Part shown: piece by piece, positions 3,130 through 60,163 of the stretch
Position numbering within the stretch: position 1 is the first letter of the stretch
Layout: every line of letters begins with the position of its first letter
The notes under the pieces: model-generated
What the model was told of the DNA's origin: nothing
Database searches by the model: none
Seen by the model: only the letters and a program-made list of their open reading frames with translations
Assembly: GCA_037138055.1 (NCBI GenBank)
Contig: JBAXJB010000002.1
Span: 4,968 to 68,967, forward strand
Source of the DNA: Alphaproteobacteria bacterium
GTDB lineage: Bacteria > Pseudomonadota > Alphaproteobacteria > Paracaedibacterales > CAITNM01
Reading direction: 5' to 3'
Length of the DNA: 64,000 nt
Translations under genes and position numbers: made by a program

Positions 3130-3136
3130 AATATAG

Positions 3137-5274: not shown

Positions 5275-6558
5275 CTATTTCCTAAAAATTCCAACTACTT
5301 CTAAATGAGCAGCCCATAAAAATTGGTCTACTGGGTGCACAACTTCCAAGGTGTATCCGCCATTTTCCAAAACTTTTGCGTCTTTGGCAAACGTATGGGG
5401 ATTACATGAAATATAAATAATCAACGGTACCTTGCTTAGGGCTAGCTGCTGTATTTGCTTTTCAGCACCGGCACGCGGAGGGTCAATCACTACCGTACTA
5501 TAGTCATTTAATGCTTTTGTATCTAAAGGATTCTCGAACAGGTCCTGAACGTATGCAGACAGTGGAAATCCTTTGGCTGCTTCTGTAAGTACTTCAATAG
5601 CTTTGGGAGCGCCCTCAAACGCATCTACCAGTCCGTAGTCTAATAAAACGCCACTGAACGTGCCGCGTCCGCAAAATAAATCTAATAGTTTTGTTTGTGG
5701 ACCTGCCTTATCAAGGGTTTGAATTACAATGTCTTGCATCCACCCCTGTGCCATGCTGCTTGCTTGTAAAAATGCCCAAGGGTCCACCGGTACTGTTAAT
5801 TGACCAAATTTAGTTGTCATAGGCGCCACTTGCCATAACACGTCATACACCTTGCGATGCCTAAATTGCAGCCTATTCCATTTCGCCTGTTCAGCAATGG
5901 CGCTTAGTTGTGCGCGTTGATCTTCAGTTAGCTGATTTATCCCTTGAACTTCAATGGCAATATCTACCAGGCCTTCTAGTTCCAAAATAAAAATTGTTGA
6001 TTTTTGAAAGGGCTCAAGCAGGTTTTCTAATGCTGTGCGCAAAAAGGGCAGGGCTTCTTGCAACGGTTGCGTTAAAACCGGACATTCTTCCATATCAATA
6101 ATCTGGTGGCTTTGAAGACGGTGAAAGCCCATGAAAAGCTTATCACCTTTTTTAACAGCTTCAAGGTTCGCCCGGCGCCGTTGAGCCGGTGGCACTACTT
6201 TAATGGGTTCAATAACATAAGGGTTCAGACCGTTATCTAAAAATGCTTGAGTTAATAACGCCGTTTTGAATTCTTTATAAAACCCTTCACTAGCGTGTTG
6301 CAGTATGCATCCCCCGCAAGCGGTAAAATGCTTACATGCAGGAGGTTGCCGTTCACTAGATGGCTTAAGAACCTGTTTGAAATACGTATTAGTGCGCCTT
6401 GGGTATTGCACCCGTTCAAACTCAACTTCTTCTCCAGGAAGGCAAAACGGCAGTTCTGTATCGCCACTGCTGCTTATTACCTCGGCAAAGCAATTGTCCT
6501 TTAGGCGCAAAGCCTTTCCTGTTGCTTGGGTAATTATTGGCGGAGTTTGATTACGCAT
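5275..6558 (-). CDS. 23S rRNA (uracil-C5)-methyltransferase, RlmD/RumA family
   Basis: 427 aa. Cys cluster CKHFTACGGCILQH typical of the RumA 4Fe-4S site. SAM motif LLDLFCGRGTFS. C-terminal VVIDPPRAG and IIYISCNP blocks. Confidence 0.8.
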   Translation of the reverse strand: MRNQTPPIITQATGKALRLKDNCFAEVISSSGDTELPFCLPGEEVEFERVQYPRRTNTYFKQVLKPSSERQPPACKHFTACGGCILQHASEGFYKEFKTALLTQAFLDNGLNPYVIEPIKVVPPAQRRRANLEAVKKGDKLFMGFHRLQSHQIIDMEECPVLTQPLQEALPFLRTALENLLEPFQKSTIFILELEGLVDIAIEVQGINQLTEDQRAQLSAIAEQAKWNRLQFRHRKVYDVLWQVAPMTTKFGQLTVPVDPWAFLQASSMAQGWMQDIVIQTLDKAGPQTKLLDLFCGRGTFSGVLLDYGLVDAFEGAPKAIEVLTEAAKGFPLSAYVQDLFENPLDTKALNDYSTVVIDPPRAGAEKQIQQLALSKVPLIIYISCNPHTFAKDAKVLENGGYTLEVVHPVDQFLWAAHLEVVGIFRK

Positions 6559-6732
6559 AAAACACTAATGTAGACGTTGATTCATAACTTCGCATGTTAA
6601 GTCTTTTTGTTTTTTTAATCTATGCAAAAGTGACAGTACGTAGAAGAGGCGAAATATTTTTTACAATATTTACTATTTGTTCATTAATTACTCCTTACAC
6701 TAAATATAGTTACTCAAATAGGTAATTTGGTA

Positions 6733-7344
6733 ATGATTGATAAGGTTTTTGTACTTCTCACCTTATGGCCTTGCATATGGGCCTGTGGCGAACTGTCTGA
6801 AATTGAATCTTATCTGGGTGATATAGAATATTGCCTAAGGGAGTGGTCAGTATGCAAAATCTATACACAACAAGAAATGGACTCATTGCCACAAGCTACG
6901 CAATTTGCAGGTCGTGAACGCCTTATTGAACATATGAAAAGTATGAATTCCATATTAGACCGCTACGCCAATTTCAAACTTAAACGCGACGAGGGGCTTG
7001 CCTTAAGCGCAAAAATCAAAACATTTGCTGACATAGACGTATTTCAAGAAGAATTTTTTGCTTCAGAAGACGCTGTTGAGGGAGATCCCAACGCTACAAT
7101 AGAAAGATGCCTAAAATATTGTGGAATATTTTTAGCGAAGCGTCAGCTTATCTCTATGTTTAGTGGCGACAGAATCCGCGGAGAACCCTATTACAAAGCC
7201 ACAACTGAACCGGTTTATCTTTATATGAAAAAATTAAAGGAAAACATTGAATATGATGGCGGCTGTATAGGACGCTACAATGCAACGCTTGCAACTATAA
7301 AGGTAACAGGTGCCAAAAAATCATGGTTATGGTACCCTTGGTAA
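6733..7344 (+). CDS. Hypothetical protein (ORFan)
   Basis: Long ORF with a hydrophobic N-terminus ([13 protein letters not shown]) and no recognised motif. ATG at 6733; the ORF track starts at a TTG at 6727. Confidence 0.4.
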
Positions 7345-7363
7345 AAAAGTAAGGGTAATTCCA

Positions 7364-8287
7364 ATGGAATACGTAATTTACGGCGTTGCTGCGCTGGTTG
7401 GTATTTATTTAATACGTTCAGTACGTATTGTACCACAAGGGTATGAACACACAGTTGAACGGTTTGGTCGCTACATTCAAACCTTAAAACCTGGTTTGAA
7501 TCTGATTATTCCTTTCGTTGATGCGGTTGGATCTAAAATCAACATGATGGAATCAGTCTTGCAAGTTCCATCGCAAGATATTATCACCAAAGACAACGCA
7601 GTCGTGAATGTTGACGGAGTGATTTTTTATCAAATTCTTGATGCATCAAAGGCGGCATACGAAGTGACTAACCTTCAAGTTGCAATTTTAAATTTAACCA
7701 TGACCAATATTCGTACTGTTATGGGTTCAATGGATTTAGATGAATTGCTATCATGCCGTGAAAAAATCAATGCACGTCTATTGTCTGTAATTGATGGTGC
7801 CACACACCCATGGGGCACAAAAGTGACTCGTATTGAAATTAAAGATATTAAGCCCCCTAAGGACTTAGTTGATTCCATGGGGCGCCAAATGAAGGCTGAA
7901 CGTGAAAAGCGCGCTTCAATTTTAGAAGCAGAAGGTCAGCGTCAATCTGAAATTCTAAAAGCAGAAGGCGAAAAGCAAGCCGCTGTCCTACAAGCCGAAG
8001 GTAAGCTAGAAGCTGCACGCCGCGAAGCTGATGGTCGTGAACGTCTAGCAGAAGCAGAAGCAAACGCTACTATCGCAATGTCAAATGCTATCAAGACCAG
8101 CGGACCAATGCCATTACAATATTTCATTGCAGAACGCTACGTTCAAGCATTCAAAGACCTTGCATGCTCACCAAATCAGAAGGTGATTATGCTACCTTAT
8201 GAAGCTACGAATATGCTAAGTTCAATTCAAGGAATTCGTGAGCTTTTAGATGCTACCGATTCAAACCCAAAATCAAAGAAAGCCTAA
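7364..8287 (+). CDS. SPFH/band-7 (stomatin-like) membrane protein
   Basis: N-terminal TM segment followed by the SPFH core ([42 protein letters not shown]) and a coiled-coil [26 protein letters not shown]. Start set at the internal ATG (MEYVIYG). Confidence 0.85.
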
Positions 8288-8299
8288 CGGAGATAATTT

Positions 8300-8743
8300 A
8301 TGGATGCGATGTTTAATTTTTGTATGAATATGGCTGCTTGGCAGTGGATGAGCTTAGGTGTGGCTTTCTTGGCATTTGAGCTAATGTTCCCAGGCATATT
8401 TATGTTGTGGTTTGGTATTAGCGGTTTACTTACCTCTGGCCTTGTGTACTTATTAGGTTTTTCAGGTGCACCTGCCATTATCATTTTCTTGGTACTTGGT
8501 TTGGTGGTTAGCTTTTTTGGCTATAAGTTCCAAAACAAAGAACCTAAGTTTTTAGTCAACAACATGAAAAAGGCGATGATTAATAAAACGATCACCCTTC
8601 AAGAACCAATCACAAACGGACAAGCGCGTGTGAAAATTGGCGATGGTCACTGGACAGTAACAGGACCTGATCTCCCAACTGGTTCAAAAGTTAAGGTTGT
8701 GGAAGTTTCTGGAAACAGCTTAGTTGTTGAATTGGCGAAGTAA
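8300..8743 (+). CDS. NfeD-family membrane protein (partner of the SPFH protein)
   Basis: 147 aa with multi-TM N-terminal half and a C-terminal OB-like soluble segment (GQARVKIGDGHWTVTG...VKVVEVSGNSLVV). Lies directly downstream of the SPFH gene, as in known SPFH-NfeD operons. Confidence 0.75.
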   Translation: MDAMFNFCMNMAAWQWMSLGVAFLAFELMFPGIFMLWFGISGLLTSGLVYLLGFSGAPAIIIFLVLGLVVSFFGYKFQNKEPKFLVNNMKKAMINKTITLQEPITNGQARVKIGDGHWTVTGPDLPTGSKVKVVEVSGNSLVVELAK

Positions 8744-8744
8744 T

Positions 8745-9956
8745 CTACCCAGCCATCTTCATAAAGAGCTTGCCCCATAAACAACTAAGTGCATTGACCA
8801 TATCGTGAATCATTTCTTTGGTATGAAAGGGCGTTACCGTTAGGCGCAGGCGCTCTTCCCCTCTGGGGACGGTTGGGTAATTGATTGGTTGTACGTAAAT
8901 GTCAAAATCATGTAAAAGTGCGTCAGTAAAGTCTTTACATGCTTTGGCGTCACCAATAACCACTGGCACAATATGGCTTGGGGTATTGTGGTAATTCACT
9001 TGTGTTTTAGCTAAAAGGCTTTTTAACAAGTTAACATTATCCCAAAGCTTCTCGCGCAGGTCATCCGCTTCTTGCAATACTTTAATTGAAGTTGTTGCAG
9101 CACTTGCCACCATTGGCGGAAGAGATGTTGTAAAAATAAAACCAGAAGCCAAACTGCGCACATAATCAACCAGGGATTTTGACCCAGTAATGTAGCCACC
9201 AATCACGCCATAAGCTTTTGCAAAATTTCCTTGAATAACATCAATGCGGTGTTGTTGATTAAGCGCATTGGCCAAACCAGCACCGCCCTTGCCATATATG
9301 CCAACTGCGTGCACTTCATCTAAATAGGTTAGGGCGTTGTATTCTTTAGCCAAATCGCAAATAACTTCTATGGGGGCAAAATCTCCCTCCATGGAATATA
9401 CAGAAACAAAAGCAATCAGCTTAGGTTGCTTTTTGTCATATTGCTCTAGCTGTTTGCGTAATTCATCTAAATTATTGTGAGAAAACACATGTTTTTGCAC
9501 ACGGCTGTGGCTTATGCCATGAATCATGGATGCATGAATTTTTTCATCGCAAAATGCCACACAATTAGGCAGGCCTTTAGCTAAGGTGCACAATGCAGCT
9601 TCATTGGCTACGTAGCCAGATGTAAAAACGAGCCCTGCTTCTTTTTCGTGCAAATCCGCAATGGTACGTTCAAGTTCCACGTGTAAATGGGCTGTGCCTG
9701 AAATATTGCGTGTGCCACCAGAACCAGCTCCATATGCTTTAGTTGCTTGTATCGCCGCTTCAATAACGCTGGGGTGATGACTCATGCCTAAATAATCATT
9801 GCTGCACCAAACAACTACAGGCTTAGGCCCATTGGCAGAATGCCAGGTTGCAACAGGTGAATTATGGGCATGCCGCTCTAAATCAGCAAACACACGGTAG
9901 CGTCCCTCTGATTTTAAAACATTTAGTTCTTGCTCAAAAAAATTATCGTAAGGCAT
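8745..9956 (-). CDS. hemA: 5-aminolevulinate synthase
   Basis: 403-aa alpha-oxoamine synthase. ALAS-like N-terminus (FFEQELNVLKSEGRYRVFADLER, VVWCSNDYLGMSHHP) and PLP-Lys region (FTTSLPP). Confidence 0.85.
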   Translation of the reverse strand: MPYDNFFEQELNVLKSEGRYRVFADLERHAHNSPVATWHSANGPKPVVVWCSNDYLGMSHHPSVIEAAIQATKAYGAGSGGTRNISGTAHLHVELERTIADLHEKEAGLVFTSGYVANEAALCTLAKGLPNCVAFCDEKIHASMIHGISHSRVQKHVFSHNNLDELRKQLEQYDKKQPKLIAFVSVYSMEGDFAPIEVICDLAKEYNALTYLDEVHAVGIYGKGGAGLANALNQQHRIDVIQGNFAKAYGVIGGYITGSKSLVDYVRSLASGFIFTTSLPPMVASAATTSIKVLQEADDLREKLWDNVNLLKSLLAKTQVNYHNTPSHIVPVVIGDAKACKDFTDALLHDFDIYVQPINYPTVPRGEERLRLTVTPFHTKEMIHDMVNALSCLWGKLFMKMAG

Positions 9957-10005
9957 CGGGGTAGTTTGCAGGTTTTTAATGGAAACATAAAGAGGAATTT
10001 GTGCT

Positions 10006-11307
10006 ATGACTATAATAAAAGTTTCAAATTATTTGGTTAATGTGTACGCGCAAGCTGAAAATGTAGCGGTTTTTTCTGTTTCTGAGCTTTCCCAGCTTTT
10101 AAAGCGAGCTGTTGAATCGCAATTCGCACAAGTATGTGTGCGCGGTGAAATCTCTGGATTTAAGTTGCACAGCTCTGGTCATGCTTATTTTGCACTGCGT
10201 GACGCTGATTGTGTGCTCGATGCTGTTATGTGGCGTGGAACAAAAACCACAGCCCCTCTTCAAGACGGGCTAGAAGTAATAGCCACTGGTAAACTGACCA
10301 CCTACGGCGGACGTTCAAAATACCAAATGGTTATTACCCACGTCGAAGCTGCGGGGCAGGGTGCCCTACTTAAAATTTTGCAAGACCGAAAAATCAAATT
10401 GCAAAAAGAAGGCTTGTTTGACAGAAAACGTGAACTACCCAAATTCCCTAGTACTATTGGTGTAATTACGTCGCCAACGGGTGCGGTTATCCGTGATATT
10501 TTACACAGGATTAGTGATCGCTTTCCTTGTCATGTATTGGTTTGGCCAGTGTTGGTGCAGGGGCCGGGGTCATCTGATCAAATAACAGCAGCAATTAAAG
10601 GCTTTAATAGTCTAGCTCAACGACCAGATGTGCTAATTGTGGCCCGCGGTGGTGGCAGTCTTGAAGATTTGTGGGCATTTAACGAAGAAAACGTTGTGCG
10701 TGCTGCAGCTTTTAGTGAAATTCCTATTATTTCCGCTGTTGGCCACGAAACTGACACAACCTTAATTGATTTTGCATCTGACAAGCGCGCACCAACGCCT
10801 ACTGCGGCTGCGGAATTTGCTACGCCTGACCAGCAAAGCTTGAAATTATTCATTAGTGAATCAGAAACCAGGCTGCAACGTATTACTTTGCAGACTCAAG
10901 AACGCTATAAGCTAATGCTGGAAAACCTAAGTCGCAGAATTCCTGATTTACCGTCAATTGTACTTGAAAAAAACCAACGGCTAGATGAATGGTTTGAACG
11001 CTACGTTCGTTCCAGCGTGGTGTTTTTGGAACGCCAAGAGAATCAATTAGAAAAAATCACTAAACCTTTAAGCTTTGCATTTGCAAAGTCTTTTTCAGAA
11101 AAAGAGCAGGCCCTGAAATGGCAGGCTATGTTGCTTAATCAAAATTCCTTCCAACGAACCTTAGAAAAGGGATTTTGTTTGGTTGAAGGAGACAAGGGCG
11201 TGATCAGTTCAGCGCAAGCATTAAAAGCTGAAAAAGAAGCGAACATTCATTTTGCTGATGGCAAGGTTCGCGTGCAGCCCGTTAAAGAACAGAAAACATT
11301 GTTCTAG
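10006..11307 (+). CDS. xseA: Exodeoxyribonuclease VII large subunit
   Basis: 433 aa with an OB-fold N-terminus ([22 protein letters not shown]), [29 protein letters not shown] and [14 protein letters not shown]. Confidence 0.9.
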
Positions 11308-44359: not shown

Positions 44360-45442
44360 ATGACAACATATTGCGTCATTGGTTGTATGACTGGCACATC
44401 GTGTGATGGGCTAGATCTGGCATATATAGAAACCAATGGCGCAGATATACTAGCTTTTGGCCCGTCAGAAACTATTCCGTTTCCTTCTGAATACAGCAAT
44501 CTTTTGCGTGAGCGAATAAACCTTAGAGCGCCTGTTCATTTTATGGATAGTGAGCTATCTAAAACCATTGCTGATTTTCACGCAAAACACATAGAAGAAT
44601 TCATGATTAATAATCAACTAACTGTTGATGCTATTGGTTTTCATGGGCAAGCAGTTTGGCATGATCCGGCTAACCAATTAACGGTTCAGCTAGGCGATTG
44701 TCAGCACCTTGCAAACTCAACCGGTATAAAGGTTATAGGACAAGTTCGTCAAAACGATATTAAAAATGGCGGCCAAGGTGCACCGCTTGTGCCGATATAT
44801 CATTTGGCATTAGCGTCTAAGCTAGAAAAGCCAACGGCATTTTTAAACATTGGTGGTGTTTCAAACATAACATTTATTAATGCTGATGAAACTCTTATCG
44901 CTGGCGATACTGGCCCTGGAAATGCATTGATTGATGATTGGGTTATAAAGCATACAGGAACGCCTCAAGATACGGATGGTCAATATGCAGCGCAAGGCAT
45001 TGTTAATAATGGCCTTCTAAACAAATGGTTGCAGCATCCATTTTTCGACCTGCCCTACCCTAAATCCTTAGATCGCATGGAATTTCATCAGGTACTAAAC
45101 GACTGCGGCGCATTATCGCTTGAAGACGGCGCAGCAACACTAACTCAATTCACTGTCGGTGCTATTATGAAAGGCATCAGCTTACTCCCAGAACAACCAA
45201 ATCAATTGATTGTATGTGGTGGAGGTTGCCATAACCCGGTGCTAATGAGCTTGTTACAAAAAAAGTTTGCAAATGTGAAAAAAGCATCTGAAATCGGTTT
45301 GAACCCAGATGCTATTGAAGCTCAATTAATGGGGTATCTTGCAGCACGATTTTTTGAAAATCTGCCCTCAAGTTTTGAAACCACTACAGGTGTAGAGCAA
45401 CCCACAATTGCCGGAGAGTTATTTCTTCCTGAATGTATCTAA
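44360..45442 (+). CDS. anmK: Anhydro-N-acetylmuramic acid kinase
   Basis: N-terminal GCMTGTSCDGLD (GxMSGTSxDG-type motif), NIGG(V)SN and a C-terminal GGG block. 360 aa. Confidence 0.85.
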   Translation: MTTYCVIGCMTGTSCDGLDLAYIETNGADILAFGPSETIPFPSEYSNLLRERINLRAPVHFMDSELSKTIADFHAKHIEEFMINNQLTVDAIGFHGQAVWHDPANQLTVQLGDCQHLANSTGIKVIGQVRQNDIKNGGQGAPLVPIYHLALASKLEKPTAFLNIGGVSNITFINADETLIAGDTGPGNALIDDWVIKHTGTPQDTDGQYAAQGIVNNGLLNKWLQHPFFDLPYPKSLDRMEFHQVLNDCGALSLEDGAATLTQFTVGAIMKGISLLPEQPNQLIVCGGGCHNPVLMSLLQKKFANVKKASEIGLNPDAIEAQLMGYLAARFFENLPSSFETTTGVEQPTIAGELFLPECI

Positions 45443-45901: not shown

Positions 45902-45969
45902 GGTCGTATTCTCCTTAAGTCCACTACTAAATAGTGGGGGATATTCTGTTGCAAGGCTACCCCCCAAGC

Positions 45970-46305
45970 CCCTAAGAGGCTACCGCTTCAACAAACAGAG
46001 TTTGTTTAGGCAGCAGCTGCAGCAGCAACACGAATGTTGTTGTTTGCCACAGTAGCCAATCCTGCAACCATTCCCTTACGGTTTTGGTTAGCAAGCTTAA
46101 CTGCTGTCTCTCTACGAGTGCGATTCAATCTGCCACTTGTAATGTTTAGTCCGATAACGACGGTACCATGCCGAGCGAAAGACCTATCTTTACCACGCGT
46201 GTCGATCCTATGTCGCCCCCATAAAAATGGTGGAGGCGCCGGGTACCGCCCCCGGGTCCACTACGCCTATTCCATAAACCGTTTATCGCTATAGATGCAA
46301 GCATC
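45970..46305 (-). ncRNA. ssrA: Two-piece (circularly permuted) tmRNA gene: acceptor piece, 7-nt spacer, coding piece
   Basis: On the minus strand the acceptor piece ends ...CCGGGGGCGGTACCCGGCGCCTCCACCA at 46228. After TTTTTAT the coding piece begins GGGGGCGACATAGGATCGAC at 46220. Acceptor pairing GGGGGCG/CGCCTCC includes the G3:U pair. Tag ORF GCA AAC AAC AAC ATT CGT GTT GCT GCT GCA GCT GCT GCC TAA (46047-46006) encodes ANNNIRVAAAAAA. The stop lies in a 7-bp hairpin, AACAAAC-TCT-GTTTGTT. Outer ends are approximate. Confidence 0.8.
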
Positions 46306-46311
46306 AGTTTA

Positions 46312-46339
46312 AATATAGTAGCTTCTGTAAATATTTCAA
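46312..46339 (-). promoter_or_regulatory. Candidate sigma-70 promoter of ssrA
   Basis: On the minus strand, TTGAAA (46339-46334), a 16-nt spacer, then TATATT (46317-46312), just upstream of the inferred acceptor piece. Confidence 0.4.
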
Positions 46340-46352
46340 GGATTTGATTGAA

Positions 46353-50226: not shown

Positions 50227-50299
50227 ATTTGAAATATATATATTGTAATATTATTTATTAGCTGCTATATGAGTAATATTACTTCAAATTAGATTTATT

Positions 50300-51529
50300 A
50301 TGAATTTTAAAAACTACCTTTTTCTAGTTTTTTGCTTTTTTAAATTAGAATGTGCCGCAACTTCTTCTGATGAAGCTCCAATGACTCTTCAAGAATTAGA
50401 GTATACCAAGGTCTTTTTATTTAAAAAACTCCCTCCCGCTGCACAACAAGAAGTCGATGATATTTGCTCTGAATGTGTGCGTGTTTTCGAAGGAATCAAA
50501 AATAGTGTTGCACTGCAAGATTTACATGATTCACTAGGGTGGCTTGGGATAAGGTTATCTAACATAATGGAGAATGACCCCACTTTCAACGATCTAATTG
50601 CTCGTTTTAAAAAACCAGTTAGAAATGGAAATGATTTATTTGAATTATTAAAGGCTACTTTAATTAAATCAAATCCTAATGCATCTGGAATTAGGATTGG
50701 ACACCCGAATAGCACTGGAGATGTGGATTTAACACTTAGCTATGCAAGAGATACTATTAACGAAATCATCCCTGACTATGTATATAGGTTTTTAAAAAGC
50801 AATGAAGGAGATTGGGATTTGGAAATGACGCTTGATATACAGATTAACTTTGCTAGAAATAAATTAGCAAGCGCCCAAAAATCCAAGAAAAAAGCAAGAA
50901 TGGGTAAAGTAGAAATGGCAGTGAAAGGCCCGGTTGCAAGTGACGTAGTGTGCGAAAGCTTAGCTTTCTCAGCTAGTGTTTCCGCTTCAAGCGAAAGCTT
51001 GGTGTGCGAACGACCAGTGTGTTCAAGTGCTTCTATTGTGGGTGGGGGAGAAGAAAAGACAGTCGCAGAAGAAACTGACAACGCCTATTCTTTATCTGCC
51101 CTAAAATCTATAGAAGGTGCAGAAACCCCAGAAACTATGATCTCTGATTCTGAAGAAATGACTGTTACCATCACCTTATCGCCTTATCACGAACAGCTTC
51201 GTGCTCTGCAAAAAACATCATTTTTCTCGAACTGGCTTAATAAAAGTGATGTCGCATCAATTAGTGCAATATTTAATACAGCTGGTGAATTAGTAGCATC
51301 TAGGGACGTTGCTGGTCTTCTTGAAAGATTAGTAAAAAAGCAGAAAGATCAAGGAATGAAAGCCCAGTACAGACAAAAAGGTAGTCATGCCCTTGCGGTA
51401 TTGACGTCCTCTTCCGGTGAAAAAATTATATTTCCTTTTGCAAATCATTCAGGATCTGATTTAGATAGAAATTCTCGTGATCTTGTAAAATCTGGATTTG
51501 AAAAACTATTTTGCCTTTCTCGGTCTTAG
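50300..51529 (+). CDS. Secreted ORFan with a HicA-like C-terminal domain
   Basis: 409 aa with a signal peptide (LFLVFCFFKLECA). The last 76 aa (51299-51526) resemble HicA: LLERL...RQKGSHALAV...IIFPFANHSGSDLDRNSRDLVKSGFEKL. Confidence 0.5.
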   Translation: MNFKNYLFLVFCFFKLECAATSSDEAPMTLQELEYTKVFLFKKLPPAAQQEVDDICSECVRVFEGIKNSVALQDLHDSLGWLGIRLSNIMENDPTFNDLIARFKKPVRNGNDLFELLKATLIKSNPNASGIRIGHPNSTGDVDLTLSYARDTINEIIPDYVYRFLKSNEGDWDLEMTLDIQINFARNKLASAQKSKKKARMGKVEMAVKGPVASDVVCESLAFSASVSASSESLVCERPVCSSASIVGGGEEKTVAEETDNAYSLSALKSIEGAETPETMISDSEEMTVTITLSPYHEQLRALQKTSFFSNWLNKSDVASISAIFNTAGELVASRDVAGLLERLVKKQKDQGMKAQYRQKGSHALAVLTSSSGEKIIFPFANHSGSDLDRNSRDLVKSGFEKLFCLSRS

Positions 51530-51568: not shown

Positions 51569-51645
51569 GCGTCCTTAGCTCAGCTGGATAGAGCGGCGGC
51601 CTTCTAAGCCGTAGGTCAGAGGTTCGAATCCTCTAGGACGCGCCA
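51569..51645 (+). tRNA. tRNA-Arg (anticodon TCT), CCA encoded
   Basis: Acceptor GCGTCCT/AGGACGC; anticodon stem GCGGC/GCCGT with loop CTTCTAA; T-loop GGTTCGAATCC. Confidence 0.95.
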
Positions 51646-52557: not shown

Positions 52558-53247
52558 ATGATTGCCCTAAATCCCTCTCAATTAAAACGCTTGTTTAACA
52601 CCATTAAACCAATATCATTGTGGTTTTTTTTAATTTCAGCGCCCATTGCCTTGTTTTATGCCCTATACATTTCACCACCAGATTATCTGCATGGTGACTT
52701 GGTCCGTATTTTGTACATCCATGTTCCAGCAGCTTGGCTTGCGGTTGGAATATATACAGTTATGGGGCTCTGTAGTTTTGCAAGCTTAGTACTTCGATCA
52801 TCCTTTTACAGTTTATGCGCCCAAAGCCTAGCATTGCCAGGATGCGTTTTGACAGTTATCTGCATGCTAACTGGCGCCATATGGGGTAAACCTGCTTGGG
52901 GCACGTGGTGGGTCTGGGATGCTAGGTTAACATCGGTTGTTGTGCTGTTTTTTCTTTATGTAGGCTATATCAACTTTTGCGATGGTGCTTTGAACAAGGC
53001 CGCAAGTGTTTTGAATGTTGTGGGGCTTATTAATGTTCCTATTATCAAATGGTCTGTTGATTGGTGGTTTACCCTGCACCAACCATCCTCCTTCTTTTTA
53101 ACGAAGAAACCAGCCATTGCTACTGAAATGCTTGTGCCATTACTGCTAATGACCGTTGTGTTTGCTAGTTGGGCCGCAGCGGTATTTACAAGACGGTTTT
53201 TTACAAACATGGAAGAATTCCAACGGAGGCATAGTGGAATTTTGTAA
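52558..53247 (+). CDS. ccmC: Cytochrome c maturation heme exporter protein CcmC
   Basis: Trp-rich signature GAIWGKPAWGTWWVWDARLTS and LYIHVPAAW. Start set at the internal ATG (MIALNPSQ). The upstream part of the track ORF overlaps kdsB and is not CcmC-like. Confidence 0.85.
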   Translation: MIALNPSQLKRLFNTIKPISLWFFLISAPIALFYALYISPPDYLHGDLVRILYIHVPAAWLAVGIYTVMGLCSFASLVLRSSFYSLCAQSLALPGCVLTVICMLTGAIWGKPAWGTWWVWDARLTSVVVLFFLYVGYINFCDGALNKAASVLNVVGLINVPIIKWSVDWWFTLHQPSSFFLTKKPAIATEMLVPLLLMTVVFASWAAAVFTRRFFTNMEEFQRRHSGIL

Positions 53248-53344
53248 TCCTTTTGTCGCACTTGCTTATGGGCTAACTTTTACCTTATTAGTGGGCATTC
53301 TCTATAGCTTGGGGTATCAGGCACATTGGTGCAAACTTTCCTAG
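53234..53344 (+). CDS. ccmD: Heme exporter protein CcmD, with its 3' end replaced by transposon sequence
   Basis: GTG follows GGAGG. The TM segment FVALAYGLTFTLLVGILYS is typical of CcmD. From codon 26 the frame runs into the left IR of the transposon, giving LGYQAHWCKLS-stop. The pre-insertion frame ends FCRTKEK-stop and overlaps the ccmE ATG. Confidence 0.5.
   Translation: MEFCNPFVALAYGLTFTLLVGILYSLGYQAHWCKLS
53306..53310. repeat. Target-site duplication, left copy (AGCTT)
   Basis: AGCTT lies immediately outside the left IR. An identical pentamer lies immediately outside the right IR. Confidence 0.85.
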
Positions 53345-53348
53345 TTGG
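53311..53348 (+). repeat. Left terminal inverted repeat (IR-L)
   Basis: GGGGTATCAGGCACATTGGTGCAAACTTTCCTAGTTGG matches the reverse complement of 58602-58639. Confidence 0.85.
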
Positions 53349-53514
53349 TATTGTACGTATAATTCAGGTTTTTAGTCTTCCTGCAGAACTCCTTGTAAAT
53401 CTAGGTTTTTAGAGGTTAGTAATCTTATTTAAGCAGTCTATTTCATTTCAGCTAAATTTTCCAAACTTATCAAAACCTATCAATTTTTCTAATGTTTTCA
53501 TCTTGCTTTGGCAA

Positions 53515-53630
53515 ATTATACGTACATATATGACGTACAAATCATATTGTACGTACTACAAGCTGAGAATTATGTGTATTGTACGTATGAAATAGGTTGT
53601 GTAACATAGGGGGTAATTATACGCATAATA
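53515..53630 (+). promoter_or_regulatory. Candidate internal resolution site: five copies of an ATTrTrCGyAyAAT-like motif upstream of the recombinase gene
   Basis: Copies at 53515-53527, 53530-53542, 53546-53558, 53578-53590 and 53616-53629, in both orientations. All share a TACG core flanked by TGT/ACA-type arms. A sixth copy is at 53350-53363. Confidence 0.5.
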
Positions 53631-53684
53631 CAAACATGATTTTCTAACTGTTGATTTTGGTTGTTAGATGTAAAAGGTAATTTG

Positions 53685-54611
53685 ATGAATCAAAACAAAA
53701 ACTCGCTTACAGAATTTGAAAAAAGTCTTATCAGGCAAGATATGGCCGATCATACGATTCAAGGTTACCTTTATGATCTGCATACATTTAAAGTTTGGGT
53801 GAAAGATTTTTACCAAACAGAAATTGATTTATCTCAGGTTACATCAAGCGATATACGAGCTTATAGAGACTATCTCATTAAAATCAAACGCTATAAAGTT
53901 GCCTCAACTAACCGTAGCATCCAAGCTATTAAACGATTTTATGCATGGCTTTCGCTATCAACAAATAGCAAGGAAGAACACGCGGCTAAAAATATCCGAT
54001 TTATGCGTAGAAATAAACAAACAAAGCCAACTGTTTTAACAAATAAAGAAGTAAATGACCTCTTGCGTGTAGCAGGGAAGTCGCCTCATGGTCTTGCAAA
54101 GCGTAATTACGCTCTTGTTCAATTGTTTTTGCAATCAGGAATACGTGTTGGGGAAGTTGTTCAATTACAAATACGTGATTTGTTGATTCAAGAGAGATCT
54201 GGCCATCTAAAAGTTGTTGATGGTAAAGGTCATAAATCCCGTGTTATACCCTTAAATGCAGCTGTTCGTCGCGCGTTAAATAGTTATTTGAATACACGAG
54301 ATAACCTTAAGCCAGAAGATCATTTGATTTTTAGTAAACGCGGGAGCCCTCAAACAATCCGTGGACTTCAGAAAATAATACAAGCACTCGTACAACGTGC
54401 CAATATAACGCGTATTGCTGCTTCTGCACACACGCTGAGGCATACATTTGCTATGAATTATTTAAAAGCTAACCCTTCTGCTCTAGTTGCACTTTCTACC
54501 CTTTTAGGGCATGACTCTCTTGATACAACCGCCATCTATACTCAATCTTCTATGGAGGATTTAAGTGATTCTATAGAGCGTAGTGACCTTAACTTTATGG
54601 AGGAAGAATGA
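53685..54611 (+). CDS. tnpI: Tyrosine site-specific recombinase (TnpI/XerC-like resolvase of the transposon)
   Basis: SAM-like N-domain (IQGYLYDLHTFKVW...DIRAYRDYL). Catalytic R (GIRVGEV), HTLRHTFA, and LLGHDSLDTTAIYTQ with the Tyr nucleophile. ATG at 53685; the track starts at a TTG at 53661. Confidence 0.8.
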   Translation: MNQNKNSLTEFEKSLIRQDMADHTIQGYLYDLHTFKVWVKDFYQTEIDLSQVTSSDIRAYRDYLIKIKRYKVASTNRSIQAIKRFYAWLSLSTNSKEEHAAKNIRFMRRNKQTKPTVLTNKEVNDLLRVAGKSPHGLAKRNYALVQLFLQSGIRVGEVVQLQIRDLLIQERSGHLKVVDGKGHKSRVIPLNAAVRRALNSYLNTRDNLKPEDHLIFSKRGSPQTIRGLQKIIQALVQRANITRIAASAHTLRHTFAMNYLKANPSALVALSTLLGHDSLDTTAIYTQSSMEDLSDSIERSDLNFMEEE

Positions 54612-57484
54612 AGGTTGCTGTCATAACGGAAGACCAGCTTGCTAAAGATTGGACTCTGTCAGAAAAAGACATACAATTTGTGCTATCAAGTGCGCGTACG
54701 GAAATTCATCAGATCCGTTGCGCAATTTATTTTTGTATTTTACGCAAGACAGGACGCTTTGCGACTGAGCGCTTCGAACTTAGTTTAAAAGCTATAAATT
54801 ATTTAGCAGATCAATTGATGCAAGAGTCCTTACTTCAAATTCCAAACCTTGACTATTCAAAGGCTGATTATGTGCGCTTTGTAAAAATTCAAGAATACTT
54901 AAATTATAAGGATTTTGGAGACGTTGAAAAACAAAATTTAAATGACTGGTGCTTACAGCAAACACAATATTACCCACTAAATAATCAAGAACTTGTGGTC
55001 AAAGCAAAAGAGTATTTGCTTTCTAAAAGGATTCTGCTCCCATCCCCATCTAGTCTTGGGCGATTTATTGCAAAAGCCGTAAAAAATTCTCATTTTGGTT
55101 TGTTTGAGCAAATTGTCAATTGTTATCCCAATCATGAGCTCTCTCAACTAGACAATTTACTCACAAGTTCAGATAATTCTGTGTACACAGAATTAATGGC
55201 CTTTAAGAGACCTCCGCCAGAACCTAGTGCAACAGTCATCAATAAATTTCTTTCTTATTTTGAAATCTTAGAGAAGCTTAAAATACCTGAATGTGATTTA
55301 TCTAAGATAAGTCCTAAAGTGATTGAAACGATATCTCAACAAGCTAAAAATCAATCTTCATGGGGTATAAGGCGCATTAAGCCGGATCAAAAGCGGTATG
55401 CAATTTTGATTTGTTTTTTAGCTGAAAGCACAAAAACAATCCTTGACACAATTATTGATATGCATAGCCTTTTACTTGGCGATATAGAAAGAAAATCAAA
55501 AAACGAATTTAAGCTTCAAAGAATTACAATGATTGGAAATGCCAAAACCAGTCGAGAAAAAACCCTTGAATTTACAAAAAAAGCTCTTTCTTGTGAGTCA
55601 CCCGAAACTATGACGCTGGCTGATTTTTTAGTTACATTTAATCGCGATGAATTACATAATGCCGTTAAAACAGCTGAAGAATACGAAGAATTTGAAGAGC
55701 GAGGCATTGTAAGAAATATGACGAAGCGATTTTCTTATATGCGTAAATATTCTAAGAAGATGTTGAAGTTAAATTTTGAAGCAGCTACTGGTAATAAGCC
55801 CTTAATGGAAGCCATTAATATTCTACGGAACCATCATGAAAATGGTGAGAAAAATTTTCCAACAGACCCCCCTATTAGTTTTTTGCCAAAGGCATGGCGT
55901 GATAATTTGTATGATGACCAGGGCAAATTTCAAATTAAGTACTTCGAAATGGGCGTTTATTACGCCATGCGGCAAAATTTGAATAAGGGGGACCTATATC
56001 TCACGGATAGTCGTCACCATCGCTACTTTTGGGATAACATTTACAATCCTGTAGATTGGCAAGACCAAAGAGAAGAATCTTATAGTGATCTGGATCTGCC
56101 GACAGAGTTTGATCAAGTGCAGGTTAAGCTCACAAAAGAATTAGAAGAAAATGTTAAGAGGGTCCACGATAATTTAGAAAAGGATGGCTTTGCAACAATT
56201 ATTGAAGGCAAACTAAAGCTTTGCAGAGAAGATGCTTTGGAAATACCGCCTGAGGTCAAACATCTTAGACGCCAAATTGAATCTGCAATGCCCACCATAA
56301 GAATAGAAAAATTACTAGCAGAGGTTGATAAAATTACTAATTTCTCGGCGGCTTTTTTACCTAATCAGAAAGAGAGACCTCTTCCAAAAAAACCACTCTA
56401 TGCCGCTATCACAGCCCAAGCTACTAATATTGGTATTTACGCTATGGGTCAAAGCAACCAAGGCATTACTGCTGAAACTATTAATGGGTTTTCAGAGCGC
56501 TATATTACAGAAGAAAACATCCAAAACGGTAATGCCATCTTAATCAAGCACACCCAAGCATATCCACTTACTCAAGTATATGGTGGGGGTAATTATTCCA
56601 GCTCTGATGGGCAACGTTTTGGTATTCAAAGTAGTACGCCCTTATCAGCATACTATCCAAGATACTACGGATTTTATGACAAAGCTATTTCCATTTATAC
56701 CCATGTTTCTGACCAATATAGCGTCTTTCATACCAGTGTTATTTCGTGTGCAGTACGAGAAGCTACATATGTTTTGGATGGATTACTATTAAATAAAACA
56801 GTTTTAAATCCAGAGTTTCATTGCACCGATAGTCATGGCTATACAGATCATCTATTTGCTTTATGCTACTTGTTAGGTTATAGCTTCCAACCTCGACTGA
56901 GTGGATTGCCACATCATGTTCTTTATAAGATGGATAAAAATAATCAATATGGAAAGATTGACTGCCTTTTTAATGGCAGTGCTAATCTTGAAATCGCAAA
57001 AGAGCAATGGGATATTATCGTACGTGTAGCCGCTTCACTTCGAAATAGCATAGCTCCAGCCCATGTTATTATCCAACGATTAGCTGGTAGAGGTGATAAA
57101 GTTGCTAAAGCCTTACAGGCACTTGGTCGTGTGGTTAAAACCATCTATATTTTGCGCTATATTTCTGATCCTGGGTTAAGGCGCAAAGTGCACTTGCAAT
57201 TGAATAGAGGAGAATCAAGACATTCTCTTGCTAAGACTATATTTTTTGACAATCGGGGCGTTTTTAAAACAAGTGATTATGAAGAAATTATGAACAAAGC
57301 AAGTTGTTTGAGTTTTGTATCAAACGCTGTTTTGGTCTGGAAAACCCATCAAACTCAACAAATTTTAGACCGACTGCGACGAGAAGGATATAAAGTTGAT
57401 GATGCATTATTGGCCAAAATATCACTGTTATCATCTAAGAACATAATTTTTCATGGCACCTATAATTTTGAAGAAATCAGCTAA
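54608..57484 (+). CDS. tnpA: Tn3-family DDE transposase TnpA
   Basis: 958 aa with a DUF4158-like N-terminus (LSEKDIQFV...IRCAIYFCILRKTGRF). Hallmark catalytic blocks: SSDGQRF, TDSHGYTDHLFALCYLLGYSFQPRL, LNRGESRHSLAKTIFF. ATGA overlap with tnpI. Confidence 0.9.
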   Translation: MKVAVITEDQLAKDWTLSEKDIQFVLSSARTEIHQIRCAIYFCILRKTGRFATERFELSLKAINYLADQLMQESLLQIPNLDYSKADYVRFVKIQEYLNYKDFGDVEKQNLNDWCLQQTQYYPLNNQELVVKAKEYLLSKRILLPSPSSLGRFIAKAVKNSHFGLFEQIVNCYPNHELSQLDNLLTSSDNSVYTELMAFKRPPPEPSATVINKFLSYFEILEKLKIPECDLSKISPKVIETISQQAKNQSSWGIRRIKPDQKRYAILICFLAESTKTILDTIIDMHSLLLGDIERKSKNEFKLQRITMIGNAKTSREKTLEFTKKALSCESPETMTLADFLVTFNRDELHNAVKTAEEYEEFEERGIVRNMTKRFSYMRKYSKKMLKLNFEAATGNKPLMEAINILRNHHENGEKNFPTDPPISFLPKAWRDNLYDDQGKFQIKYFEMGVYYAMRQNLNKGDLYLTDSRHHRYFWDNIYNPVDWQDQREESYSDLDLPTEFDQVQVKLTKELEENVKRVHDNLEKDGFATIIEGKLKLCREDALEIPPEVKHLRRQIESAMPTIRIEKLLAEVDKITNFSAAFLPNQKERPLPKKPLYAAITAQATNIGIYAMGQSNQGITAETINGFSERYITEENIQNGNAILIKHTQAYPLTQVYGGGNYSSSDGQRFGIQSSTPLSAYYPRYYGFYDKAISIYTHVSDQYSVFHTSVISCAVREATYVLDGLLLNKTVLNPEFHCTDSHGYTDHLFALCYLLGYSFQPRLSGLPHHVLYKMDKNNQYGKIDCLFNGSANLEIAKEQWDIIVRVAASLRNSIAPAHVIIQRLAGRGDKVAKALQALGRVVKTIYILRYISDPGLRRKVHLQLNRGESRHSLAKTIFFDNRGVFKTSDYEEIMNKASCLSFVSNAVLVWKTHQTQQILDRLRREGYKVDDALLAKISLLSSKNIIFHGTYNFEEIS

Positions 57485-57500
57485 TTTGAAGGAAAAAAAT

Positions 57501-58550
57501 ATGAAGACACCTGTAATAAATCAAGAATACAATTTGTTTTTATCGAATCTAAAAAAACGTGTTTCTCTATCACGTCATAAGGCCGTTCTTAGCGTAAACA
57601 AAGAACTAATCCTACTTTACCATCATATTGGTACTGTCATTTTGAATTCTCAAACGAACCATGGCTGGGGCGCCAAAATCATTGATCAGCTTTCGCGAGA
57701 TTTACGATCAGAATTTCCTGAGATGAAGGGATTTAGCCCTCAGAACTTAAAATATATGAGACGATTTGCCGAGGAATACAGCTTTGATGAAATTGGTCAA
57801 CAGGCTATTGACCAATTGCCTTGGGGACATATCATAACCTTGATATATGACATTGCAAATAAAACGGAAAGAACATTTTATATTAATGGTACTATTCAAA
57901 ATGGTTGGTCGAGGAATATATTATCAATGCAGATTGAAACAGATTTGTTCAAAAGACAGGGCAAATCAATTACAAACTTTCAAAGTCAATTATCGTCCCC
58001 TCATTCTGATTTGGCACAGGCAACCTTGAAAAACCCCTATCTATTTGATTTTTTAAGCTTAGGAGATGATGCTCATGAGAGAGAAGTCGAAAAAGGGCTT
58101 GTTAGCCATATTGAAAAATTCCTTCTTGAACTTGGGGAAGGCTTTGCTTTTCTAGGGCGCCAGTACCATCTACAGGTTGAAGATCAGGATTTCTATATTG
58201 ATTTGTTATTTTACCATATTAAATTACGCTCTTTTGTTGTTATTGAGCTAAAATCTGGCAAATTTAAGCCTGAATATGCTGGTAAGCTGAATTTCTACCT
58301 TTCTGCAGTTGATGATTTGCTGCGTCAACCTGGAGATAATCCTTCTATTGGCCTAATTTTATGTCGGTCTAAGGTTGGAGTTCTTGCAGAGTATGCACTT
58401 CGAGACATGTCCAAGCCTATTGGTCTTGCTGAGTATAAACTAACTGAAAATCTGCCAAACAACCTAAAAACGGCTTTACCAACCATTGAAGAGCTAGAAG
58501 CCGAGTTAACAAAAAACTTTGAAAATGAAGGGGAAAATGAAAAGTCATAG
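57501..58550 (+). CDS. PDDEXK-nuclease-fold protein, YhcG/DUF1016 family (transposon cargo)
   Basis: N-terminal DUF1016-type helical region (LILLYHHIG...WGAKIIDQLSRDL, LPWGH). C-terminal nuclease core FYIDLLFYHIKLRSFVVIELKSGKFKPEYAGKLNFYL (D...ExK). ATG at 57501 is preceded by GAAGGA. Confidence 0.75.
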   Translation: MKTPVINQEYNLFLSNLKKRVSLSRHKAVLSVNKELILLYHHIGTVILNSQTNHGWGAKIIDQLSRDLRSEFPEMKGFSPQNLKYMRRFAEEYSFDEIGQQAIDQLPWGHIITLIYDIANKTERTFYINGTIQNGWSRNILSMQIETDLFKRQGKSITNFQSQLSSPHSDLAQATLKNPYLFDFLSLGDDAHEREVEKGLVSHIEKFLLELGEGFAFLGRQYHLQVEDQDFYIDLLFYHIKLRSFVVIELKSGKFKPEYAGKLNFYLSAVDDLLRQPGDNPSIGLILCRSKVGVLAEYALRDMSKPIGLAEYKLTENLPNNLKTALPTIEELEAELTKNFENEGENEKS

Positions 58551-58601
58551 AAATATGAGTCAACAGTGCATTATCAAATGGGGTAATTGTGCGCATAATA
58601 T

Positions 58602-58639
58602 GCTACTAGGAAAATTCACACCAATGTGCCTGATACCCC
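58602..58639 (-). repeat. Right terminal inverted repeat (IR-R)
   Basis: The reverse complement reads GGGGTATCAGGCACATTGGTGTGAATTTTCCTAGTAGC. Confidence 0.85.
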
Positions 58640-58644
58640 AGCTT
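58640..58644. repeat. Target-site duplication, right copy (AGCTT)
   Basis: Identical to 53306-53310 and directly abuts IR-R. Confidence 0.85.
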
Positions 58645-58662
58645 TTGTAGAACCAAAGAAAA

Positions 58663-59064
58663 ATGAGCCCAAAAGCCAAACAGCGCACTATACGCCTTGT
58701 CCTAATCTTAGGTCTTGTAACAGGTATTTGCCTTTTTCTAGTGGGTGCGTTGCGTGAAAATATTGTCTATTTCAAAACTCCAAGTGAACTTTTGGTTTTG
58801 ACAGATCATCCCAAAAAACTACGCCTTGGGGGTTTGGTCGTCAAAGGCACGCTATATTCAAAAAACAGCCAGCACAACTTTATGGTAACAGACCAAAAAA
58901 CTACCATACAGGTTATGTACAGTGGCCGTTTGCCAGATCTATTTCGGGAAAATCAAGGAATAGTCGCTATTGGAAATTACGATAGCTCTAAAAAAATCTT
59001 TAATGCTAATCAGCTTTTGGCAAAGCATGATCAGTATTACAGACCCCCAAAAACAACCGAATAA
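58663..59064 (+). CDS. ccmE: Cytochrome c-type biogenesis heme chaperone CcmE
   Basis: N-terminal anchor followed by an OB-fold (IVYFKTPSEL, LRLGGLVVKG) and the heme-binding His context LAKHDQYYRPP. Confidence 0.85.
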   Translation: MSPKAKQRTIRLVLILGLVTGICLFLVGALRENIVYFKTPSELLVLTDHPKKLRLGGLVVKGTLYSKNSQHNFMVTDQKTTIQVMYSGRLPDLFRENQGIVAIGNYDSSKKIFNANQLLAKHDQYYRPPKTTE

Positions 59065-59152
59065 TATAATAATAATTGAGTAAATAGTAGTTTTATATTA
59101 AATATAAGAATCAGCAAGCAAACTAGCAGCATTTTACGTTAGAGAAACTACT

Positions 59153-60160
59153 ATGACCAGCATCAATAAAATTTATGTCTTCTGTCTTTTTTTATGCATG
59201 AACCTAAATGCTGCTGATTCATCTTGTTCATCATCATCAGAATTTCTTCGGCCAACGCTTCATGAAAAAATGCTTGCTTCAATGAAAAGTGAACTTGAAT
59301 ATGATTGGAAAAGCTGTTTAGCTCTTGACGCAACTGCTAGAGAACATTATGAAGAAAAAGAAAAAGCAGGAACCACTTGTGTTTATAGCGAGCGCCTTTT
59401 AACAGAACCTTTAATGAGTGAATTGAAAAAAATAGCTCTTGAGCTGAAAGCTCGAATACCAGATGGTTCTATTTTAATACAAGTCGGTCGTTCCCCTTGG
59501 CTTTTGCAAGAAATGATGAAAGCGCTTGATCTAAATGTTAGCTGGATAACATTGCCGTTTAGTCATAAAATAGGCTTCGCTAGAACTGAGAGGGACTTAG
59601 TTGAATATCCAACTCCAGAACCATGGGATATTGAAGACTTGCAAGAACCCCAGAAAAGTTGGGTGACTTCCTATATTAAATTCTTACAAAACCAACTTCA
59701 TATAACTGAAGAATGGCTAATTCCTTGTGCTGGTCGTATTTATATTGTGGACTATATCGCTAGCGGAGAAAGCCTTCAAGACGCCCTTGAATTAGTCAAC
59801 AAAGCCATTGGAGTATGCTTGGGCATAACGAAAATTGGATTCAATCAAGATGATGAGCCTGATCCTTACTGGAAGACAAATCCAACAAACATATTTTTTA
59901 CAATAAGTAAAAATCTAGCAAACAGCATGATGCTAAAGCATACAGTAAGGAAGAAAATGGTTGAAAAATATAGTCTAGACAATCGCAATCCAGACAGCTT
60001 TTTTGAAAACGCGCATGGTCATACTTTTTATCCAGCCGAATGGGCTGATCCTATTGCATTAGCAAGAGTTTCTGAACCAGCCCCTTTAACGTTAACTGCA
60101 AAAGCAAAAAGACAGCAAATTATTGACTTCGCTTCATCACACAGAAGTGAAAAAAAATAA
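59153..60160 (+). CDS. Hypothetical secreted protein (ORFan)
   Basis: 335 aa with a signal peptide (IYVFCLFLCMNLNA). No recognisable motif. Confidence 0.5.
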   Translation: MTSINKIYVFCLFLCMNLNAADSSCSSSSEFLRPTLHEKMLASMKSELEYDWKSCLALDATAREHYEEKEKAGTTCVYSERLLTEPLMSELKKIALELKARIPDGSILIQVGRSPWLLQEMMKALDLNVSWITLPFSHKIGFARTERDLVEYPTPEPWDIEDLQEPQKSWVTSYIKFLQNQLHITEEWLIPCAGRIYIVDYIASGESLQDALELVNKAIGVCLGITKIGFNQDDEPDPYWKTNPTNIFFTISKNLANSMMLKHTVRKKMVEKYSLDNRNPDSFFENAHGHTFYPAEWADPIALARVSEPAPLTLTAKAKRQQIIDFASSHRSEKK

Positions 60161-60163
60161 ACC

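Follow-up and report, generated by a model that had tools for sequence, protein, structure and literature searches.

The 64-kilobase (kb) window analysed here, the whole stretch of 64,000 nucleotides from one contig (JBAXJB010000002.1) of an assembly filed as Alphaproteobacteria bacterium (GCA_037138055.1), contains at 53311-58639 an element of the Tn3 transposon family that is 5,329 base pairs (bp) long. It carries three intact, co-directional genes on the + strand, which encode a tyrosine recombinase (tnpI), a transposase (tnpA) and a passenger nuclease, and it lies between ccmC and ccmE. The first 21 bp of the element (53311-53331) are the exact reverse complement of its last 21 bp (58619-58639; 21/21), the match holds at 33 of 38 positions over 38 bp, and both tips begin with GGGG. 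When one gap is allowed the inverted repeat extends to about 53-54 bp (53311-53363 against 58586-58639, about 45/55 positions matching). By our own estimate, a 64-kb window of the same composition should hold about 3e-4 inverted matches of 21 nucleotides lying no more than 10 kb apart, without yet requiring the 5-bp repeat, and a chance origin of the ends is therefore excluded. Immediately outside the tips are two copies of the pentamer AGCTT, at 53306-53310 and 58640-58644, which form a perfect target-site duplication; at the place of the left copy, relatives of the host have one pentamer, GGCCT.

The transposase gene tnpA (54608..57484, + strand) encodes 958 amino acids, and its start overlaps the stop of tnpI by four nucleotides (ATGA). 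The product matches Pfam DUF4158 and DDE_Tnp_Tn3 (2-389/389, E value 6.6e-119), scores 719 bits with the NCBIfam model transpos_Tn3 (cut-off 500; 2-954/954), and aligns end to end with the solved TnpA of Tn4430 (7qd4/7qd8) with an E value of about 1e-110. The catalytic residues of the Tn4430 enzyme are D679, D751 and E881 (PMC9579193). These align with D667, D741 and E869 of the window protein, in which the DDE triad is intact. The transposases of related elements are of similar length (957-962 amino acids).

The recombinase gene tnpI (53685..54611, + strand) lies immediately 5' of tnpA in the same direction and encodes 308 amino acids; its open reading frame (ORF) opens with a TTG at 53661, and the ATG at 53685 is the start used by the related genes. 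TnpI matches Pfam Phage_integrase (E value 8.9e-31) and a SAM-like N domain, and it is a full-length XerC/XerD-like protein; inspection of the sequence showed the residues R, K, HxxR, H and Y. It is 31% identical over its full length to the TnpI of TnBth4 (E value 2e-41), though models of the Xer type score equally well, and 50% identical to Legionella plasmid recombinases that adjoin Tn3 transposases. The same tnpI-tnpA pair is found in all close relatives of the element with readable upstream sequence, and a tnpI homologue is adjacent to the transposase gene in 19/59 more distant genome loci with enough upstream sequence.

The host genes on either side are ccmC (52558..53247, + strand; Pfam Cytochrom_C_asm, E value 5.5e-30), whose homologues are 93-98% identical and are named heme exporter protein C at source, and ccmE (58663..59064; Pfam CcmE, E value 4.6e-26), which shares the + strand with the three transposon genes. 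An exact look-up of the CcmE sequence gave no match. Between ccmC and ccmE a small ORF with a GTG start at 53234 now continues into the end of the transposon, where it meets a stop codon at 53342-53344 (53234..53344, + strand). Its detached 3' end, AGC TTT TGT AGA ACC AAA GAA AAA TGA, is found on the same strand at 58640..58666, with a stop that overlaps the start of ccmE. Removal of 53311-58644 in silico restores an ORF of 32 codons whose TGA overlaps the ccmE ATG at 58663. The restored frame would encode a small single-helix protein, is translationally coupled to ccmE, and is conserved between ccmC and ccmE in relatives of the host. Its product, which now ends in ...LYSLGYQAHWCKLS, originally ended in ...LYSFCRTKEK, and the relatives have ...LYGLCRTK(E/K)K at the same place. 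The identification of the interrupted ORF as ccmD is supported by its position and by a sub-threshold match to Pfam CcmD, which covers the helix only (18.3 bits against a cut-off of 25.6; E value 0.0025 for the restored and 0.011 for the interrupted frame). A sequence-only reading of the window, made without database searches, had described the inverted ends and the flanking AGCTT copies, the three ORFs with the ATGA overlap of the first two, the tyrosine recombinase, the Tn3-family character of the 958-amino acid product, and a ccmD frame that reappears upon excision with its stop over the ccmE ATG; the analyses given above bear out each of these points at the same coordinates, the identity of TnpA through the agreement of Pfam, NCBIfam and the Tn4430 alignment, and that of the recombinase through its Pfam match.

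In order to find the same locus without the transposon, we reached assemblies of host relatives through their CcmC homologues. The loci obtained came from NCBI assemblies (L093, and L101 in GCA_973787335.1), lake metagenomes in ENA (L095 and L096), JGI (L100) and Logan (L102). The first five are colinear across 53305|58641 of the window and contain no insert, with 88-96% nucleotide identity in the flanks, while L102 is colinear up to 53305 only, as its contig ends at the left junction. The junction reads TCTAT GGCCT TTGTAG in the relatives and TCTAT AGCTT [5,329 bp] AGCTT TTGTAG in the window. Because the site is uninterrupted and colinear in the relatives, the insertion is lineage-specific and exact to the base, and it duplicated the lineage's own pentamer. 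An empty ccmD-ccmE site with a single pentamer, which the sequence-only reading had proposed looking for in related genomes, is thus present in all five assemblies that cover both flanks, and its view of the insertion as recent stands, the relatives not sharing an old, fixed remnant at this position. The G+C content of the transposon genes is 36.5-37.6%, compared with 41.4 +/- 2.2% in 16 host genes (about two standard deviations lower), which gives weak support to a recent foreign origin. Together, the occupied site and the empty sites of the relatives form a clean natural 'before and after' pair and a useful reference annotation.

These comparisons also bear on two other origins of the segment. 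The five mismatches between the 38-bp ends are the sole hint of an ancient, fixed and immobile remnant common to the whole lineage, and left and right ends differ to an equal extent in related elements. The uninterrupted site in relatives refutes this explanation, which is also opposed by the lack of frameshifts and stops, and we give it next to no credence. Since the window is from one contig (84,894 bp) of an uncultured organism, and the surroundings of some related elements resemble plasmids, it could also be asked whether a plasmid-borne transposon was mis-joined into a chromosomal contig during assembly. Such a mis-join would not give a 5-bp direct duplication of host sequence exactly at both tips, and the host sequence is colinear to the base with that of the relatives after excision, which makes an assembly artefact highly improbable.

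The left terminal inverted repeat (53311-53363, + strand, about 53 bp) consists of an outer, GGGG-initiated part of 37 bp and an inner dyad motif, ATTGTACGTATAAT, at 53350-53363; the right terminal inverted repeat (58586-58639, - strand, about 54 bp) has the corresponding inner motif, ATTGTGCGCATAAT, at 58586-58599, with TGCG in place of TACG, a change that related elements tolerate at another site. Compared with the right end and with all six relatives, the left end lacks 1 bp, at the junction of its outer part of 37 bp with the inner motif. In an alignment of the left ends of seven related elements, the window element included, column identity was 0.76 in the outer end, 0.89 in the inner end (53348-53364), the best value for any non-coding part, 0.59 in the spacer, and 0.80 in a conserved block of 122 bp just upstream of tnpI. 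This block (53512..53633, + strand) is a candidate internal resolution site (IRS). The motif ATTRTRCGYA occurs 10 times in the 64 kb, against 1.35 occurrences expected, and nine of the ten are inside the element; they lie in the inner portion of both ends and at four positions of the IRS block. Copies of the motif in the IRS are at 53515-53524, 53546-53555, 53578-53587 and 53616-53629, with a divergent copy at 53528-53542.

Within the IRS, the segment 53532..53555 (+ strand) is a candidate recombination core, GACGTACAA-ATCATA-TTGTACGTA, with inverted arms of 9 bp around a centre of 6 bp. The arms are complementary at 7-9 of 9 positions in six of the seven elements, and paired changes occur at arm positions 6-7 (AC/GT, CT/AG, AT/AT). 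We have taken the inverted pair as the probable strand-exchange core and the other copies as putative accessory sites. A promoter-like site at 53601..53629 (+ strand; GTAACA-17-CATAAT) gave a weak 9/12 in a consensus scan, and its -10 hexamer is inside the tnpI-proximal motif; it is a possible autoregulated promoter for tnpI and tnpA. Promoter and terminator scans overall did no better than shuffled sequences, and this site and a second one in the right end are to be read as leads only. The ends of about 53 bp, the inner recombinase-type motif and the 122-bp IRS are all new with respect to the sequence-only reading.

The presence of a tyrosine recombinase of the Xer/integrase superfamily is what could be cited for an integrative element that was inserted site-specifically by this enzyme, with the transposase as a passenger. 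The borders are GGGG-initiated inverted repeats with a 5-bp duplication, where direct repeats of the attL/attR kind would be expected of such an element. The motifs for the recombinase lie inside the element and, as in Tn4430 and Tn5401, include an inverted core upstream of tnpI, and the target is neither a tRNA gene nor a dif-like site. An integrative element is hence a hardly credible explanation. We conclude that 53311-58639 is very probably a complete replicative Tn3-family transposon of the rarer type in which cointegrates are resolved by the tyrosine recombinase TnpI and not by a serine resolvase.

A census of 190 elements in 2020 listed three members of the TnpI-type branch, all from Bacillus (PMC7157771). 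TnBth4 is 83% identical to Tn5401 (PMC7157771), both being elements of Bacillus thuringiensis, and we measured the Tn5401-like architecture directly on TnBth4. This element has 53-bp GGGG ends with one copy of its own motif in each, and, upstream of its tnpI, an inverted pair of motifs separated by 6 bp and then two direct copies. The window element resembles Tn5401 and TnBth4 in the order of tnpI and tnpA, in its GGGG-initiated ends of about 53 bp with an inner recombinase-binding motif (PMC7157771), and in having the IRS just 5' of tnpI, with an inverted core of 6-bp spacer and then direct copies. It differs from them in that its TnpA is only 26% identical, its motif is unrelated (ATTRTACGTA as opposed to ATGTCCRCTAA), and one extra motif copy is present to the left of the core. 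It also has no ParE/ParD pair upstream of tnpI, it carries a passenger downstream of tnpA, and its host is an alphaproteobacterium, not a Firmicute. Tn4430 of Bacillus thuringiensis likewise has the order tnpI-tnpA, and its TnpA is the closest solved structure. Its IRS is 116 bp long, compared with 122 bp in the window, and has an inverted core and two direct accessory motifs (PMC2847244); its ends are 38 bp long (PMC9579193), and the target duplication in the window is 5 bp. Unlike the window element, Tn4430 has no passenger, and the spacer of its core is given as 4 bp, with a stagger of 6 bp. The papers cited here make no mention of a TnpI motif in the ends of Tn4430.

A possible course of transposition can be drawn from Tn4430 and Tn5401. 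TnpA would bind the outer 38 bp or so of each end, nick the 3' ends, and join them to target DNA cleaved at positions staggered by 5 bp. Host replication would then copy the element, and donor and target would be fused into a cointegrate. TnpI, acting on the 122-bp site upstream of its own gene, would exchange strands at the core (53532-53555, with its 6-bp central region), while the flanking motif copies would impose resolution between directly repeated sites. As each end of about 53 bp contains an extra copy of the motif on its inner side, like the ends of Tn5401, TnpI probably modulates the binding of TnpA, and the motif over the -10 of the tnpI promoter would probably provide autoregulation by analogy with Tn5401 (PMC7157771). 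A plasmid is the most likely donor, because some related elements adjoin conjugation or plasmid-replication genes and more distant ones are on plasmids of Legionella and Rickettsiales. The passenger would have been gained in the stretch that separates the stop codon of tnpA from the right end.

The transposases closest to that of the window share 63-71% identity with it and are all metagenomic. They belong to loci without cargo (L081-L091), in which TnpI is 62-67% identical. The loci with both ends on the contig are 4.2-4.26 kb long, have ends of about 53-55 bp, and contain no passenger. These loci share the ends and the IRS block with the window element, and most have the ATGA overlap. Where the surroundings of related metagenomic elements are visible, they are plasmid-like in several cases (TraH/TraG; RepA with toxin-antitoxin genes; ParA). 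One related element is joined to several different sequences on its right-hand side and to two on its left, as is expected of a mobile family.

In a scan of genome collections the best TnpA identity was 45-52%. The nearest named relatives are on plasmids of Legionella pneumophila (NZ_CP016875), Legionella antarctica and Candidatus (Ca.) Megaera polyxenophila (NZ_CP104167), with 44-49% identity in TnpA and 43-51% in TnpI; on the Legionella plasmids the values are 44-45% and about 50%. The L. pneumophila element, like that of the window, has a single passenger directly after tnpA, which is in that case a gene of the RhuM/Fic/DOC family. The Ca. Megaera polyxenophila element has the same family of ends, including the inner ATTATGCG.. 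motif, but its tnpA is split into two ORFs. The public records of the Legionella and Megaera elements annotate them gene by gene and not as transposons. It had been suggested from the sequence that a mobile element of this kind would be unusual in a reduced, host-associated-looking genome. The comparison lends this suggestion no support, as the plasmids that carry the nearest named relatives of TnpA, TnpI and the cargo belong to Legionella, Ca. Megaera, Rickettsia, Ca. Bandiella and Francisella. On the Ca. Megaera plasmid the element occupies 5691-10399, its inverted ends being 59 nucleotides long, and an RHH/ParE toxin-antitoxin pair lies just outside the left end, upstream of tnpI, which recalls the toxin-antitoxin pair of Tn5401.

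The passenger (57501..58550, + strand; the ORF opens at 57453) encodes a YhcG/DUF1016 nuclease of the PD-(D/E)xK type with 349 amino acids. It matches Pfam DUF1016_N (E value 1.1e-42) and YhcG_C (E value 1.5e-64), and the PADLOC model PDC-S02 over its full length (E value 3.9e-150; 16-353/357). The active-site motif D...ELK is kept (...FYIDLLFYH...VVIELK..., with E249 and K251, by inspection), and a PDB sequence search gave no solved homologue. From these matches the passenger is a candidate anti-phage gene of the single-gene family PDC-S02; PDC systems are defence candidates only, and the literature on phage protection gives no more than correlations. The gene is absent from the related elements of 4.2 kb, whose right end follows 10-35 bp past tnpA, and no relic of an older right end was found between tnpA and the passenger at up to eight mismatches. 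The nearest plasmid homologues of the passenger are in Rickettsia asiatica, on pRA1 between traW and traU (65.5%), and in Ca. Bandiella numerosa (64%), echoing an earlier report of DUF1016 genes on rickettsial conjugative elements (PMC4316617). Its carriage by a transposon adds another hint that the gene is under selection as an accessory, mobile passenger. A separate observation concerns L008, a contig of a Saccharibacteria metagenome-assembled genome, in which a DUF1016/YhcG homologue (3070-4032; 31% identical to the window passenger) directly follows a distant Tn3-family tnpA (38%), as though a gene of this family had been captured separately there, in the corresponding slot.

From its intactness we infer that the element may still be mobile, and several observations have to be set against this and against the reading of the segment as a complete TnpI-type transposon. 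The element is single-copy in the window, where no further copy of the 38-bp end is found when up to eight mismatches are allowed, and no second copy was found in any collection searched, including by exact look-up of TnpA. Apart from itself, no protein with at least 90% identity to its TnpA is present among 5.8 billion clusters. The 1-bp deletion in the left end, between the part bound by the transposase and the inner motif, could impair recognition of that end. TnpA also lacks the canonical QLxxLR clamp-binding motif and has YFCILR instead, and the motif is likewise missing from about half of Tn3-family members (PMC11417375). All assignments of binding sites come from sequence conservation only. 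Finally, just one of six related elements (L083, with TATTT) has a clean 5-bp duplication; we attribute the lack of duplications in the others to short-read assembly, which can mis-join the flanks of repeated elements.

It is thus possible that the element is structurally complete and yet immobile, a recently arrived copy that is now inert through the left-end deletion, missense changes or missing host factors. Only the left end has the deletion, a single copy of the element is known and the collections searched gave no second site, and the right-end inner motif carries the TGCG already described. All three ORFs are full length, though, with catalytic residues intact, and the duplication is perfect; moreover, the closest sampled relatives are without the insert, and there has therefore been little time for decay. 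We regard an inert copy as unlikely, though it deserves to be kept in mind, and favour a complete transposon that may still move.

Two further observations were made on the tips and flanks of other sequences. In L085 (93-4323) and L088 (310-4573), the 6 bp on either side of the element are inverted complements and not direct repeats (GTAATA...TATTAC and GCTTTT(G)...(A)AAAAGC), possibly as a result of a palindromic target, an intramolecular event or mis-assembly. A metagenome scan for the 21-bp tip, GGGGTATCAGGCACATTGGTG, gave a sole match, to a JGI contig of 1.1 kb (L108, Ga0105164_10165145). At 186-208 this contig has a transposon-like end that shares the outermost 23 bp (GGGGTATCAGGCACATTGGTGT..) with the window element. 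It was rejected as a second copy, since only the tip is shared and the interior is unrelated, and it is either a different element or a miniature derivative that uses the same tip.

The element is a well-delimited new member of the TnpI-type Tn3 branch with Tn5401-like ends, and not a new kind of element; for the gene pool to which it belongs it is nothing out of the ordinary. It extends this branch to an alphaproteobacterial chromosome and leaves the understanding of the Tn3 family unchanged. Its Tn5401-like ends offer a second, independent system in which to see how a tip-bound resolvase controls a Tn3-family transposase. More tentatively, and with rather more doubt than confidence, we suggest that TnpI-type Tn3 elements could form an uncatalogued clade in proteobacteria, with Tn5401-like ends to whose tips the resolvase would also bind, and that the present copy could be the first of its members to be delimited in a chromosomal insertion. 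The plasmids on which such elements would circulate are those of bacteria associated with protists and arthropods (Legionella, Rickettsiales and Paracaedibacter-like lineages), and the elements would ferry single genes of a defence or virulence type in one fixed slot after tnpA, a YhcG nuclease here and RhuM/Fic/DOC in Legionella. If this is true, then recombinase control of the end-binding of the transposase would be ancient and widespread in the family and not a peculiarity of Bacillus.

For the host, the insertion has kept the CcmD helix and replaced its basic C-terminal tail. The translational coupling of ccmE has been lost, and the gene is now 5.3 kb from ccmC and ccmD. The terminator scan gave no terminator-like site between the passenger and ccmE, and a weak outward promoter-like site in the right end (58571-58599) faces ccmE. 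Since the transposon genes all have the orientation of the ccm genes, expression of ccmE may be maintained by read-through.

The host itself is an alphaproteobacterium, as judged from the sequences of its two-piece transfer-messenger RNA (tmRNA) of the alphaproteobacterial type and its valyl-tRNA synthetase. The nearest named relatives of the latter are a mixture of Paracaedibacteraceae/Odyssella, at 57-58% identity, and, a few points lower at 54-56%, free-living genera of the Rhodospirillales type; the close relatives of the host come from lake metagenomes. The permuted tmRNA gene is at 45933-46343 on the - strand, and since alignments with the relatives are interrupted within this gene, at about 46014-46110, part of its interior seems to be variable. 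Close relatives also differ from one another between ccmE and thyX (59065-60162). The window and L100 share the same ORF of 335 amino acids there (59153-60160 in the window), with no family match and a G+C content of 37.2%, as low as that of the transposon, L095 and L096 have a DUF3857 protein of 742 amino acids on the opposite strand, and L093 has nothing. A second variable region, 50228-51529, adjoins tRNA-Arg(TCT) (51569-51645) and contains an ORF of 409 amino acids (50300-51529) that is low in G+C and has no match in Pfam, NCBIfam or PADLOC. Alignments with the relatives break at 50227, and the ORFs in this region are of 528 amino acids in L093, 401 in L095, and 200 + 168/246 in L100/L101. 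Lastly, anmK, which is intact in the window (44360-45442, 360 amino acids), is called as four fragments in L101 (GCA_973787335.1, 1582-2662), reflecting either pseudogenisation or sequencing errors in that assembly.

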